NCBI GenBank assembly: GCA_964016885.1
Contig: OZ024763.1
Location: forward strand, 744,001-808,000
Length of the DNA: 64,000 nucleotides
Reading direction: 5' to 3'
DNA from: Eledone cirrhosa
Taxonomy: Eukaryota
The translations under genes were made by a program, and so were the position numbers. This document shows positions 26,946-62,542 of this stretch, in pieces. Every line of letters begins with the position of its first letter. Positions within the stretch are counted from its first letter, which is position 1. The notes beneath the pieces are model-generated. The model worked only from the letters and a program-made list of their open reading frames with translations, was not told where the DNA came from and did not search any database.

Positions 26946-28099
26946 TCTTCCTTCTATCTCAAGCGTTAACCTAATATATCCCTTCCATATACTGTACCGA
27001 TTGTGTTGTTATTTCTGTTTACCTTTCACGCACACGCACGCACGTACGTATTTATAAATACATACAGGCATGTATTTTAAAATTTTTACTTATATTTATT
27101 CACGAACATATAAGCACATATCCAGGAATTTCCGGAGACAAGACTCTGTATTAAATTGACCCCAGTATGTAACTGGTACTTTATTTTATCTGCTCTCAAA
27201 ACATAAAATTCAAAATTAATGTCCGTAGTATCTGCTCTGAAAACACAAATGTGGTCTAATGTTATTTAAAAATAAAAAATAAAAAATTGACGTTTCAATA
27301 CTTTATTTTGATATACAAATTTCTAGGTATGTCGATGGCTTAGTGGTTAAGTATGTGATGTAGTTTTGGTGGTATGTAGCGTAAGGTTTTGTCAGGAGTT
27401 CAATATTTCACTGGGATGATATAGAATTGCTTTTAATTATTTTTTAATGGAGGAAACACTACATAGCGCCATTACTTCAACTCACATCATTGTAGTTTCA
27501 AATCTTACATATGTACACATATCTATCTATGTAGGAATCGGGTTTGACAATTTACCGACACATCACACACATGGAAATGAGGTATGACAGATTTGAAGTT
27601 ATTGAGTACTACTACAGACGGAGTCAATGGAAGTTCAAATCAACCCTAGAGCGATAATAAACAAAAGCAAGATTTACTTTATAGAAGCCCCAGGGGGATG
27701 AAAGACAAGGTCGACCCTTTCTAGTACCAATAGTACTGTGAAAGTCTTGAACGCCACCTAGGATCAAATCTAACACACACACACGCATCGGTTGCTCTGA
27801 CAGGACCCGCTGGAAGGAGTGTTTGAGGGCTCTGTCTCCACAACCCTCACCCGAAGAACAATGTATGACCATTGAATAACGACACTGCAGATCATCTGGA
27901 TATAGGATCAAATAAACCCTAGAGAAATGAGAAACCAAATCAAAATATATTTCGTGAAAGTCCCAGACGGATAAAAATTAATGTCGACCCCTTTTTGTAG
28001 TATTAATAATATTGAGAAAGCCATGAACGCCACCACATCAATTAAGCTTCGCAATAGAAAGTAGGTTTATAAATATTAATTTTCAGTCTGTTTGTGTAG

Positions 28100-28185
28100 T
28101 TATCTCGGTGTCTTAATGGTAAGTGTTAGAGACGGTGGTGATCCTAGTCAGGTGTTCAATCTCGACCAGAATCCGCTATTTTTTT
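28100..28185 (+). ncRNA. tRNA-derived two-hairpin Pol III-type RNA, copy 1
   Basis: Upstream AAAGTAGGTTTATAAATATTAATTTTCA, A box TGTCTTAATGG, B box GTTCAATC, T7 terminator. Confidence 0.65.
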
Positions 28186-28222
28186 CATTTTTATTATGAA
28201 ATAAAATAAAATAAACTTTGTA

Positions 28223-28296
28223 GTGCTTGGGCAAGATTGAACTCGAGACCAAAACCTTCATCATCTCTAACACCTACCAATAGGCCACCGAGACGG
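28223..28296 (-). ncRNA. tRNA-derived two-hairpin RNA, copy 2 (convergent with copy 1)
   Basis: Minus strand CCGTCTCGGTGGCCTATTGGTAGGTGTTAGAGATG...GAGTTCAATC; same upstream motif at 28312-28343. Confidence 0.65.
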
Positions 28297-28947
28297 ATAC
28301 AAAATCAAGGTGAAAATTAATATTTATAAACCTACTTTCTATTTCCAAGCTTAATTCACGTGGTGGTGTTCATGCCTTCCTCAGTCGAATTAATATTATA
28401 AAGGGTTGACGTTGATTTTTATTCTTCTGAGGCTTTGATAAAATAAATCTTGATTTGATATCTCATTTAGCCAGGGTTGATTTGATCCCACAACCAGATG
28501 ATCTCCACTAACGACCTTCATTGGTCATACCTGATTACTAAATATATACATGTGTGTGTTAGATTTGATACTACAGTGATGTATTGGCAATAATGCCTCT
28601 TCAGTTCTGTCATCCCTCAATCTATATATATATATATATATATATGAGTGTGTGTGTGTTTGTGTGTTAGATTTGATCTTACAGTGATGTGTTGGCAATA
28701 ATGCCTCTTCAGTTTGAACGTACAAGGACGCTATATTCTTTTTTGATGTTGTTTTTAGTTAATAAAAGTAATTTTACAATCCCAGCTAAAGATTGAAACC
28801 CTAACTACATATTATAACAACAACCACGACATAACAGTCTCCTGTTAAAAATAATCCCCTGCATTTCTTTATTTCACTGCTTCATAAGGGAGAAAAGGGT
28901 CTCTGAGAATGTTGATAAGGTTTGACTCGGCTTTCCATTTACCACAG

Positions 28948-29074
28948 TATATAAATGGTAGTGTGTTCCTTACACTAAACATGTGATGTTCACTGTTGTC
29001 AAGTACTTGCCTCTCACGGTCAGTTCATTGCCAGTTTGATTCCTGCAGCGATGAAGGAAGGTCGTGGCATTTTT
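28948..29074 (+). other. TATA-box cassette A (small RNA or first exon)
   Basis: TATATAAA, ~90-nt conserved body ending GCAGCGATGAAGGAAGGTCGTG, then T5. Confidence 0.45.
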
Positions 29075-29579
29075 CCTCTCTCGCAAATCACATATTTTTA
29101 TTGATTAGATAACAATACACAAGAGAAAGAATTAACGTGAGAAAGTAAATATTTGAAAAGAAATATTTTATTACATTAAAATACAAACAAGAATTAACGA
29201 TAGAAAATTGGTGTAGAGTTTGTAACACTAAACGTGGAATGGACGAAGTAACAAAACAGACGAATTTGAGACAAACTGGTGATTATAATAAGGACAATTT
29301 ATTGCATCTTCAACTGTTTGCTGAAAACTGAAATGAAAAATTCATTGAAAAGAAACACTTACAAAGACAAGTAGCAGTATTTATCGGAATATGTCTCACC
29401 ATATTTTGAAAAACAAATGTTTGGATAAGAGTTAATGTGCAGGTATACTTATACATGGCTTTTGTAAACATACATATATTTATCATATTGGTATGTTGAG
29501 TGTTTAAGATACAAGCAGGTTTCCACATCGACATTTTGAGGTTACAATGCCCCTATTATTCACTCCACCCAACAAAAAA

Positions 29580-30720
29580 CGGAAATGTGTAAATCTTTAA
29601 TTTTAAAGTGGATAAGAATGTTAAAGACGAACACAGCAAGTTGGACGATAGATATAATAAAACCTTCCTTTATTTAGAGAAACATGTTATAACTGGAGAT
29701 AAATAGGTGAAACACCACCGAAAGGAATCAGAAATTATTGAAGGAAACTAAAGAACATACCAGAAATATTAAGAAATGTCTTGTGAAGATGGAAAACATA
29801 GGAATTGTAACTTTAAAAAAAAAAAGGGGGAGCCATGATAGAAATATAAAATATTTCGGGGAGGAGTTAATATGCATATATACATATATACACAGCTATA
29901 TTTATTCATGGCATGTATATATGTTTTAATTATGTTCGTACATCGAATGTACAAAATACAAGAAGGTTTCGGCAAAGACTTGTAAAATAAAGAGGCGCCT
30001 CTTATACCCCTCCCCAACGAATTGGGAGTATGTATGAATTTGAATTTAAAGGTGGCTAACTATGTGAAAGAAAACGCAGCAAGTCAGATGATAGGAATAA
30101 TAAAATATTTCTTAACTTGTGTAAAGTCAGGTAAACTTTAAACTCTAGATAAATGAAATGAGAGATACCACTTAAAATATTGTTTTGGAGGCCTTGTCTC
30201 ACGACTTCCGAAAGAACAGAAGATATTGAAGGAATCCAGACAAGAAAAAATATAAAAGACCAGAATAATTAAGAAATCCCAACACTAGAGGAGTGAAAGC
30301 TAAGGGAAGCCATGAAATATTACATTATTCCAGATAAATGTAAAGCCTTGAAAATATAAATACTAGTACACTACTCTAATGTAAACAGTGTAGGAAATAC
30401 AATTATAGAGGAAATAAGTCAAACTGAAGAGATATATATATTATATATAAAATAATGAAAGTACAGTATTCCAAAAGGAAACATAACCGTGAGGAGGGAT
30501 CACCATTTTACTGCGTATAAAAATACTCGAAGACACTAGAAAATATTTTTTCTGAAACATTTATCAATAAACGGAAGAATTCTTCAAGATATGTACTAGA
30601 AATAAAATCTTGAGTACACGAAAGAAATATTTAAAAAGATGGACTTGAAAATATGACAATACAGTATTATAGAAGAAAATGTAAATATGAGAGGAGGAAC
30701 ACGCCATTATACTGCTTATA
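29580..30720 (+). mobile_element. Decayed CR1-like LINE ORF2 fragments (internally duplicated)
   Basis: Relics of KANQMIGIIKR / VRPHLEYC..W.P / TLEERR.RGDMIE motifs. Confidence 0.65.
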
Positions 30721-30726
30721 AGAGAT

Positions 30727-60900: not shown

Positions 60901-61180
60901 GTGAATACATAAAATTAAAAAAAAAACATTCCTGAATAAAATAAATATTTTACTTTCATTAAATTGTTTCTTTACTTTCTTTTATAAAACACATTTATTA
61001 ATATAAATTAAGCACAGCAATGTAGGTTCAAATCTTACTTGCATGTATATATAGAAAGCACGTTTAACAATTTACGTGTACGACTAAGCTGGAATGAGGT
61101 ATGACATTATTGCAGACGGAGTTGTTGTAGGTTCAAATCAAGCCTAGAGCAATGAGAAATAAAGTCTAGATTTACTTTAC
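57983..61180 (+). repeat. Recent deleted copy of array segment 33.7-38.56 kb
   Basis: Collinear high identity with 33715-35297, 36269-37190 and 37640-38560. Confidence 0.9.
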
Positions 61181-61216
61181 CTCACACATATGTCTATATA
61201 TATATATATATATATA

Positions 61217-61494
61217 CACATACATACATACATACATACATACATACATACATACATACATACATACATACATACATACATACATACATACATACATACA
61301 TACATACATACATACATACATACATACATACATACATACATACATACATACATACATACATACATACATACATACATACATACATACATACATACATACA
61401 TACATACATACATACATACATACATACATACATACATACATACATACATACATACATACATACATACATACATACATACATACATACATACATA
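61217..61494. repeat. (CATA)n microsatellite
   Basis: Perfect tetranucleotide run. Confidence 0.98.
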
Positions 61495-62210
61495 TTCTTT
61501 CCTGAGACATTCTAACCACATGTCCATAGTATCAGAGCTGTGATCTCTCAGTTGGGAGAAGTAGCAGCTCTACCTGGAGTGACTCTCTGATCTCTGAGCT
61601 ACACACTTTATCAAGTAACGTTACTCCAAAGACCCTTTCGAGGTACTCCATTTTGGCTGCTTGTATTCGCTTTTAACTCTACTAACTCAGTACTAAGTTT
61701 AGTTAAATCTACTAAATACCATAGTGCAGCACTGGAGCTCTAAAGTGCCATACTGTGGCACTCTAGTTCGGGAGTTCAATAGTGTCTTACTCTTGCTCCC
61801 TATTGCCATATACATGTATATATATATAGAAACATACATGCTTACGTGTATATATATATATTACGTGTTGAAAATTCTATCAGTTGATAAAACAACAATA
61901 TAGCATTGAAATATATATTCAACCTCAAAATTGATTTATTTTCTATTGCAGACTTCCAATGTTATGTTTAGAATTGTTCCTGACGATGTCTTTCTAAAGA
62001 TGTGTAACATGTAATAGCAATGAAACAAGTGTTGATCAAATAAATATTTTATAAACTGTTGAACTTGGTGACTTATTTCTTTGTTTTATATATATATATA
62101 TATATATAAATAATTTATTTATATATGTGTATAGATATATAAATAAATGTGTGTGTGTATATATACATATAAATATATATGTTTGTGTGTGTGTGTATAT
62201 ATATATACAT

Positions 62211-62284
62211 CCGTTTTGGTGACCCAGTGGTATGTATTAGAGGTGAATCCGTTCCTGGTCGTGAGATCGATCTGAATCAGGATA
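62211..62284 (+). ncRNA. tRNA-derived two-hairpin RNA, copy 8
   Basis: CGTTTT/GAGGTG (G-U rich), TCCTGGT/ATCAGGA; upstream motif replaced by microsatellite; B box degenerate. Confidence 0.5.
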
Positions 62285-62341
62285 TAATCTCACTAAATCT
62301 TACTTTTCCCTTTTATAAGAGAAAAAAATGTAAGACCCCTT

Positions 62342-62415
62342 AACGTATGTCTTCATTGAAAACCAAACCAGGTCCTCCACCGTCTCTAATAACCCCCACT
62401 AGGCCACCGTAACAA
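62342..62415 (-). ncRNA. tRNA-derived two-hairpin RNA, copy 9 (degenerate, convergent)
   Basis: Minus strand GGTGGCCTAGTGG...TTAGAGACGGTGGAGGACCTGGT; upstream motif relic 62435-62468. Confidence 0.5.
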
Positions 62416-62542
62416 TAACAGCTCCAGAACTAATTGAAATTTAATATATATGAAACTACTTTCTATTAGCAAGCTAAATAGATGTGGTTACATTCATGCT
62501 GGTTCCGTCTTATTAACACTACATAGAGCGGTGTCTTGGCAG

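Follow-up and report, generated by a model that had tools for sequence, protein, structure and literature searches.

A Pol III-type gene family of likely tRNA origin, thousands of copies strong and very probably transcribed, in the genome of Eledone cirrhosa

Gene copies in a 64-kb window

The window, the whole 64-kb stretch of Eledone cirrhosa DNA analysed here, holds nine full gene bodies, all recovered with nhmmer where an earlier sequence-only reading had placed them. A model search of the window, with a model built from relatives of these same nine copies, gave nine matches at E<=4e-10 and none further below E 0.1. A truncated tenth copy is present on the reverse strand (35489-). The bodies carry A and B boxes at tRNA-like spacing (∼45 nt apart), an upstream element precedes eight of the nine as well as the truncated copy, and a T4 run lies ∼20-45 nt from the B box in seven of the eight full copies that bear this promoter.

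Unit a, on the forward strand, combines an upstream element with TATA and AATTTT (28058..28085), an A box at 28109, a B box at 28154 and a predicted 87-nt RNA from G+1 to T4 (28096..28182), its ends deduced from the retrocopies described below. Convergent with it on the reverse strand is unit b (predicted 93-nt RNA, 28208..28300; upstream element, 28311..28338). Another upstream motif, located at about -76 to -60, common to several subfamilies and unlike the U6 upstream motif, lies near unit a (28020..28036, forward strand), with further sites at 28376-, 35296+, 35566-, 38587+ and 39283-. Unit g (35378+; 35335..35455 with its upstream element, forward strand) is promoter-bearing but has no T4 nearby, and the truncated unit t (35460..35527, reverse strand) consists of a promoter and a 5' part; in other repeat units, among the matches listed, t is full length. 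On the forward strand follow unit c (38625..38763, element and predicted 101-nt RNA from 38663), unit d (38795..38936, element and predicted 104-nt RNA from 38833) and unit e (38956..39086, element and predicted 93-nt RNA from 38994), the last convergent with unit f on the reverse strand (39111..39245, element and predicted 97-nt RNA from 39207). An orphan upstream region devoid of a body occupies 40912..40980 (reverse strand). Unit h (62211+; body at 62207..62307, forward strand) is the sole full copy without the upstream element, which is replaced by a (TA)n tract and is retained by its counterparts in other repeat units among the matches listed; with a T4 within its 5' end, h is probably dead at this locus. 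Unit i (62325..62462, reverse strand) has a degenerate element and a longer spacer, and has lost its 3' hairpin.

Copy number and spread as DNA

The description of the locus as nine genes holds within the window, but genome-wide the copies number in the thousands, and the nine are a small sample of them. The 28-mer of the upstream element has 287 exact matches in the genome and 3,408 with at most two mismatches, a lower bound on promoter copies, against none for the reversed control; a metagenome scan with the same 28-mer gave no match. Searched from the other side, 217 of 230 copies found through the body carry the upstream element. The copies are arranged in clusters and in convergent pairs with T-runs between them, inside segmental repeats, and arrays also sit near contig ends. 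Among 94 dispersed loci, both promoter and partner are present in 72 and neither in 13.

One unit pair is carried inside elements of 0.6-1.9 kb with terminal inverted repeats (TIRs) and 8-bp flanking repeats (four complete cases). The TIRs are 14 nt long, with 497 exact matches in the genome; the 8-bp flanks are identical at two loci (L134, L110) and differ by 1-2 mismatches at two others (L178, L125), and consist of microsatellite sequence. With its short TIRs and 8-bp duplication, the carrier is a non-autonomous DNA transposon, of a superfamily that we take to be hAT, and it is not the carrier of the window copies. The earlier observation that the units have neither tail nor target-site duplication thus applies inside the window only, since elsewhere a transposon-borne pair and retrocopies occur.

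A conserved promoter on divergent bodies

The upstream promoter consists of a full TATAAAT at -28 and an AATTTT box. TATA and core are 33-35 nt apart in 359 of 366 copies, and 244 of 296 keep a T-run no farther than 45 nt away. TATA, AATTTT and the B box are nearly invariant on bodies that differ by 25-50%: across 29 subfamily representatives, divergence is 0.09 for TATA, 0.09 for AATTTTCA and 0.10 for the B box, 0.22 for both the A box and GAGACGG, 0.50 for the spacer, 0.44 and 0.52 for the hairpin-2 strands and 0.68 for the tail. The low values of the promoter boxes are partly a matter of base composition or ascertainment, because lower divergence of TATA and B box (0.07 vs about 0.17) is seen in the transposon copies as well, a set that was filtered for the upstream element.

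An upstream box of similar sequence, AATTT(T/G)A, precedes the tRNA-Pro, tRNA-Glu and 7SL genes of the same genome; an insect precedent for the AATTTT box was not found in a literature search. The U6 genes share a motif containing ATGCAAAT that is missing from the family, and a U6-type (type 3) promoter was therefore rejected on the lack of this PSE/octamer motif.

Class and ancestry

As the sequence-only reading had proposed, these units are not tRNAs. ARAGORN made no calls in the window, and none of its relaxed calls covered the units; the anticodon stem is 18% and the acceptor stem 63% paired, and the whole cloverleaf 53% paired, vs 37-50% when slid, with 47% in the canonical T-stem register. 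Nor could they be assigned to an Rfam family: no Vault or Y RNA model matched the units tested, among all matches to E 10, and Vault was also absent among the best 150 of 261 matches of a first Rfam scan. Matches to plant miRNA models were discounted as products of the inverted pairs and of (TA)n tracts. A viral VA-RNA or Polinton origin was rejected because, within the window, no long coding frame lies close to the units; by eye, the stretches fetched beyond it hold only LINE- and Helitron-like frames.

An unrecognised vault RNA of this lineage would be suggested by the size, by the type 2 promoter with upstream element, which is the vault promoter type according to PMC7904556, and by the predicted rod of one subfamily, in which the 5' strand pairs with bases downstream of the B box. 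It is nevertheless extremely unlikely, given the failure of Vault models to match any unit tested, the thousands of copies, a 5' half resembling tRNA-Pro, and ends predicted to be unpaired in most subfamilies (5'-3' end pairing is predicted in a minority that includes the largest sampled).

The likeliest parent, judged from sequence identity, is tRNA-Pro: its genes (L241-L258) match the family at a mean of 14.5 of 22 5' bases, vs 12.7 for Glu and about 10.5 for Thr and others, a modest margin in a comparison that covered Pro, Glu, Thr and one mobile tRNA-like type. The upstream boxes are also similar, whereas the family has extra bases before the B box, a T loop one base shorter, and no anticodon arm.

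With an apparent tRNA/SINE origin, an upstream promoter of its own and a discrete short transcript of predicted ends, the family appears to belong to the snaR/4.5SH/BC1 kind of derived Pol III RNA genes, which are alike in kind without being one homologous family. snaR of great apes (PMC3045588) is likewise a small Pol III RNA with an ancestor of SINE type, which multiplied into arrays mostly through segmental duplication and has retroposed relatives; it is a primate family derived from Alu/7SL, whereas the present family is tRNA-derived, counts thousands of copies, and shows convergent pairs and a DNA-transposon carrier. No homology is expected. Rodent 4.5SH and 4.5SI, about 100 nt long, depend on a type 2 promoter with a weak TATA-like box at -31/-24 and are related to SINEs B1/B2 (PMC7279448), in contrast to the full TATAAAT at -28 with AATTTT found here. 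BC1, a tRNA-derived Pol III RNA whose tRNA part is refolded as a hairpin instead of a cloverleaf, is described in PMC4233971 as a single neuronal locus of 152 nt that arose from tRNA-Ala via retroposition, unlike this DNA-duplicated multigene family. No account of the family was found in the open-access literature searched. In passages from PMC13282606, PMC8967140 and PMC6962438 it goes unmentioned, and their supplements or repeat libraries may carry it among their repeats or SINEs without a name.

Probable retrocopies and predicted RNA ends

Promoter-less solo copies begin at a G 28 nt past TATA. At nine full-length solo loci, picked from 13, the match to the parent is 8/9, 8/9 and 9/9 from this G onward and 0/9 one base before it, and in at least four of the promoter-less dispersed solo copies the first T4-5 is the 3' end. 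In a second promoter-less set (n=23), ten start at RTA+1, the T-rich spacer is kept in only one, and a common retroelement 3' tail is joined to three. At one locus (L132), a SINE-type tail is accompanied by a short direct repeat, and the best partners of promoter-less loci include cluster subfamilies (L306, L305, L297, L281). Not every G+1 boundary marks a retrocopy, as at L118, a DNA copy, a SINE insertion produces the same break. Solo copies running from G+1 to the T-run are likely retrocopies, and as such a likely, if indirect, sign that Pol III transcribed the family in the germline and of where the RNA begins and ends, strengthening the earlier assignment to tRNA-derived genes of Pol III type. 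They speak for past transcription, not present; in three sequencing runs from one sample of unspecified kind, spacers and genes are covered alike. Solo copies retain a 6-nt leader and a trailer, and there is no acceptor or anticodon stem, which argues against trimming by RNase P/Z.

Like tRNA-derived SINEs, the family has an A/B-box head, and some of its solo copies have retroelement tails. It is not the head of a dispersed high-copy SINE, although retrocopies and a transposon carrier exist: its RNA can apparently be retroposed, to judge from solo-copy boundaries and tail chimeras, but most copies retain their 5' flank, pointing to DNA duplication: the element is kept by 217 of 230, and 72 of 94 dispersed loci hold DNA pairs. 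Copies share neither body nor tail, and the tails of the solo copies differ. A selfish or neutral repeat, in which a proto-SINE source gene without any host function spread passively through segmental duplication and capture by hAT, is quite unlikely. It would accommodate the pair inside TIR elements with 8-bp flanking repeats, the many dead copies (units h and t, the orphan promoter), the chimeras with retroelement tails, and another tRNA-like unit of the same genome that moves together with its 5' flank. DNA copying gives no reason, however, for a promoter of fixed spacing across paralogs 25-50% apart, and retrocopies make up the smaller part of the copies and carry different tails, unlike the output of a successful SINE.

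Predicted folds and the target of selection

The sequence-only reading had described two hairpins, selected after duplication. Evidence for the first is modest. Hairpin 1 is 84% paired, vs 38-47% when the whole structure is slid by 1-3 columns and 80.4% in a neutral simulation, 54 of whose 2000 runs reached the observed value. The ratio of kept to lost pairs at its double changes is 5:1, compared with 1:18 among transposon copies. Double changes are seen at three stem pairs, one of which went from C-G to U-A in two separate lineages. The compensatory changes reported in the D-stem (CCU/AGG, UCU/AGA, CUU/AAG) and in one outer stem (GCCUC/GAGGU) are present, but GUUUU/GAGGU is wobble only and compensates nothing. 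Pair-keeping changes in hairpin 1 are at the level of neutrally decaying transposon copies (0.40 vs 0.39, p 0.89), and its core has a mean pair probability of only about 0.45 (56 representatives). Hairpin 2 is not supported: its pair-keeping is 0.35 vs 0.39 in transposon copies, and its register shifts between subfamilies. RNAalifold assigns it six pairs from the nine copies; from 48 diverse copies the program predicts no pairs in either hairpin. Against shuffles, one of the nine copies folds clearly better (unit g, the best two-hairpin fold, z -3.65), with one more at -2.1. Selection on structure is thus weakly indicated, for hairpin 1 only, in tests that allowed for kinship through the use of disjoint nearest pairs and of a star simulation; alignment A3 excludes a poly-G copy and nine representatives that were truncated or rich in indels.

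The strong form of that reading, a two-helix RNA selected as a mimic of the tRNA elbow through D-loop/T-loop contact, is very improbable. Two hairpins are the commonest predicted fold among subfamilies, in the predicted folds of the best copies the helices are indeed swapped with respect to tRNA, and D-loop GG and UUCRA are retained in at least 90% of 48 copies. Yet these are A- and B-box bases, the conserved loops doubling as promoter boxes; moreover, hairpin 2 has no excess support, the T stem in its canonical register is 47% paired, and the most-copied, heavily retrocopied subfamily prefers a rod.

Alternatively, the DNA promoter may be what matters, with arrays of TFIIIB/TFIIIC sites serving as chromatin barriers or organisers or aiding the carrier transposon, and the RNA a by-product with a hairpin inherited from the founder. 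The boxes being the most conserved parts, the neutral level of pair-keeping, the many bodies and folds tolerated, the repeated B-box modules found where hairpin 2 would be in C1/C3/C13-type copies, and the arrays near contig ends and in segmental repeats would all suit this explanation. We consider it unlikely in view of the double changes in the stem, the retained T-runs, and the non-promoter strand GAGACGG, conserved like the A box (though at 0.21 among transposon copies). From these comparisons we infer that transcription itself has been the main object of selection and the 5' hairpin a minor one.

A proposed role and its implications

We very probably deal with an expressed gene family, and favour, with some reserve, an account of tRNA-descended Pol III genes whose germline RNAs likely act as decoys. 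Thousands of short genes, likely from a tRNA with Pro as the best guess, would be transcribed by TFIIIC/TFIIIB-driven Pol III from G+1 to the oligo-U, giving a predicted unprocessed RNA of 85-105 nt, likely made in the germline and presumably spared by RNase P/Z. Its commonest fold would be a 5' hairpin with a GUCUC/GAGAC core capped by the old D-arm, followed by a variable 3' half. That the RNA itself benefits the host is somewhat favoured. The putative decoy step, taken singly, is doubtful: abundant RNAs would occupy proteins that handle tRNA-like and SINE RNA, perhaps titrating La-type 3'-oligo-U binders or the LINE reverse-transcription machinery, which must have met the RNA, as retrocopies exist. 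Quite improbable is the fullest version, in which lineage-wide germline Pol III RNAs, born by a helix swap in tRNA-Pro that left an elbow without acceptor or anticodon, would act as dose-based LINE/SINE decoys, seed SINEs by template switching and hitch-hike on a DNA transposon.

If expressed today, the family would rank with the largest small-RNA gene families still lacking annotation in an animal model; tRNA and Rfam scans miss it. Its retrocopies supply exact predicted RNA ends, and its strong upstream Pol III element is predicted to be usable in cephalopod vectors. How a SINE is born could also be followed within this one genome, from a tRNA gene through a derived RNA gene to a retrocopy that has borrowed its tail.

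Copy number and genomic setting

The nine full bodies and the truncated copy claimed for the window were all found in place. They belong to a family with thousands of copies in a 3.0-Gb genome of chromosome-size contigs, and the window samples a single stretch of it. Genome-wide, 287 sites match the upstream 28-mer exactly and 3,408 do so with no more than two mismatches, versus none for the reversed 28-mer used as a control. A genome search with a 161-nt query gave 477 candidates; the matches among the 40 scored lie mostly on the window's own contig, in repeats ∼35-40 kb apart. 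Many contigs carry clusters of copies, frequently arranged as convergent pairs separated by T-runs. Near contig ends, a distinct subfamily whose B-box modules are repeated forms ∼15.7-kb units. On several contigs (loci L073-L079, L171), these repeats each hold three repeated-B-box units plus LINE-like reading frames. Within 26800-43000 and 58000-64000 of the window, the units are surrounded by repeated non-coding modules (100-1000 nt, 65-90% identity), with no long coding frame seen in them, and a GC-rich 18-nt tandem array of ∼200 copies occupies 5500-9360. At L174:4750-5770 and G000:C17:33693998-33696663, promoter-less bodies have been amplified in tandem with a unit of 93-95 nt, and part of the body is contained in an array with a 30-nt period.

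Promoter organization

The unit reads TATAAAT, AATTTTCA, a variable spacer, GTAG, A box and B box, the latter ∼45 nt beyond the A box, a tRNA-like spacing as the sequence-only reading had proposed. The upstream element accompanies 217/230 copies found by body alone, and lies 33-35 nt from the body core in 359 of 366. Among 29 subfamily representatives, from a set filtered for this element, pairwise divergence is low in TATA (0.09), AATTTTCA (0.09), B box (0.10) and A box (0.22), and high in the spacer (0.50), hairpin 2 (0.44-0.52) and tail (0.68). Because of this filtering, and because divergence among transposon-borne copies, our neutral control, is likewise lower in TATA and B box (0.07) than in the body (∼0.17), the excess constraint on the promoter is about twofold, not fivefold. 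From its motifs, the promoter is a predicted type 2 promoter with upstream helpers, a type reported for 4.5SH and 4.5SI in the part of the source consulted (PMC7279448). The U6 genes of this genome differ in their upstream motif and place TATA at -30; an AATTT(T/G)A box similar to the family's lies upstream of tRNA-Pro, one tRNA-Glu and 7SL genes. Arrayed Pol III genes are widespread here: U6, 7SL, tRNA-Pro and a tRNA-Glu-type motif form tandem arrays at G000:C19:31.78-31.84 Mb, C12:42.10-42.13 Mb, C3:235.8-236.1 Mb and C3:277.2-277.3 Mb.

Likely tRNA ancestry

The units are not tRNAs, as had been claimed: ARAGORN called 0 tRNAs over the whole window, and across 48 diverse copies the anticodon stem is 18% paired. 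In Rfam scans with all matches listed, none of the units matched a tRNA, vault or Y RNA model, vault RNA thereby being an unlikely candidate, and the best 150 of 261 matches in a whole-window scan were all microRNA models on repeats. A membership test did not place the family among SINEs. Against tRNAs of this genome, Pro scored best as parent (mean 42 versus 34-39 for others), with 14.5 identical 5' bases out of 22, versus 12.7 for Glu and ∼10.5 for Thr. Since every tRNA type sampled outscores its own shuffles, descent from a tRNA is likely, and Pro would be just the best guess among the few isotypes compared.

A putative transposon carrier

The body pattern gave 205 matches genome-wide, most of those listed being dispersed singles. 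Promoter and convergent partner are present in 72 of 94 loci examined, with common flanks of ∼1 kb. In four complete cases, within (TA)n tracts, 14-nt terminal inverted repeats (TIRs), spaced 0.6-1.9 kb, enclose the two convergent units and are bordered by 8-bp repeats (L125:769-1902; L134:674-2573; L110:1078-2190; L178:5046-5651); the flanking repeats are identical in L134 and L110. The TIR has 497 exact matches genome-wide. We read the carrier as a putative non-autonomous element, presumably of hAT type; none of the window copies lies inside one. In a dispersed tRNA-like family (L095, L097-L105; 1500-1574), the copies have a common 5' flank and differing anticodons (GAC, AGC, GGC, GGT, GTC), which suggests a tRNA gene that travels with a mobile element.

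Probable retrocopies and past transcription

Neither promoter nor partner is present in 13 of the 94 loci. In nine of these solo bodies, hand-picked as full length, the parent is matched from the G of GTAG onward (8/9, 8/9, 9/9) and in 0/9 one base earlier; this shared start lies 28 nt after TATA, and L186, L202, L204 and L132 end at the first T4-5. A second pattern, for window-type bodies, gave 121 matches genome-wide; 23 of the 27 loci examined have no promoter, 10 of these 23 begin at RTA+1, and only one retains the T-rich spacer. The nearest relatives of several solos are cluster subfamilies (L306, L305, L297, L281). On the simplest reading, the solos would be retrocopies of an untrimmed Pol III transcript, from G+1 to oligo-U, made in the germline. 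A G+1 boundary can also arise when a SINE insertion cuts a DNA copy, as in L118, and the ragged ends of other solos count against the retrocopy reading. If the solos are retrocopies, any transcription they attest would be past transcription. In three of the 23 promoter-less loci, the body is fused to the 3' tail of a retroelement, and this tail also exists by itself. Chimeras of the family RNA with such tails, possibly nascent SINEs, occur at L282, L286 and L295 (∼1485-1640) and at L132 (1468-1590), the last combining a tail of SINE type with a short direct repeat.

RNA structure

The proposed fold comprises hairpin 1 (5' strand with GAGACGG, capped by the old D-arm) and hairpin 2 (variable region with 3' strand, capped by the T-loop). 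On 48 diverse copies this model is 74% paired (hairpin 1 84%, hairpin 2 64%), versus 38-47% when slid, and the cloverleaf 53%; RNAalifold found no consensus structure on these copies. Two hairpins are the most frequent predicted fold among 56 representatives, with core pair probability averaging ∼0.45, and the largest sampled subfamily is predicted to form a rod with paired ends. Support shrinks once relatedness is partly controlled: across 14 disjoint subfamily pairs, the pair-keeping share of changes is 0.40 for hairpin 1 and 0.35 for hairpin 2, versus 0.39 in transposon copies, and a first-pass test gave p 0.25-0.32. Double changes in hairpin 1 are kept:lost 5:1 versus 1:18 in transposon copies, 14 of those 18 losses coming from one unit and possibly reflecting its reference copy. 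For hairpin 1, a star simulation gave 80.4 ± 1.9% pairing versus the observed 84%, a value that 54 of 2000 runs reached. Conservation of its GAGACGG strand equals that of the A box, and at one D-stem pair two lineages show a change from C-G to U-A. The claim of a covarying two-hairpin fold is only partly supported, modestly for hairpin 1, by double changes and pairing, and not for hairpin 2. Conservation of the D-loop GG and T-loop cannot show an elbow, because those bases are promoter bases.

Possible role and relation to known RNAs

In the established pathway, TFIIIC binds the A and B boxes and TFIIIB the TATA, followed by Pol III transcription. By this route the units would yield an 85-105-nt RNA, which would be neither trimmed nor charged because acceptor and anticodon stems are absent. 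Copy number would have risen through DNA duplication and transposon capture, with selection maintaining intact promoters. On the main rival reading, what matters is the promoter arrays, acting as chromatin elements, with the RNA as a by-product. Our own suggestion, a doubtful guess, is that the RNA may act by dose in the germline as a decoy for binders of oligo-U or tRNA-like RNA or for the LINE machinery.

In the parts of the sources consulted, the family resembles snaR in segmental duplication and in presumed Pol III transcription and retroposed relatives (PMC3045588), 4.5SH/4.5SI in a TATA-assisted type 2 promoter (PMC7279448) and BC1 in the refolding of a tRNA sequence into a hairpin (PMC4233971); it belongs to none of these. 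Searches of the literature, including main-text passages of cephalopod genome or repeat papers, found no description of it. We conclude that this is a real, very large tRNA-derived Pol III gene family, probably undescribed so far, for which the presumed retrocopies point indirectly to transcription in the germline.
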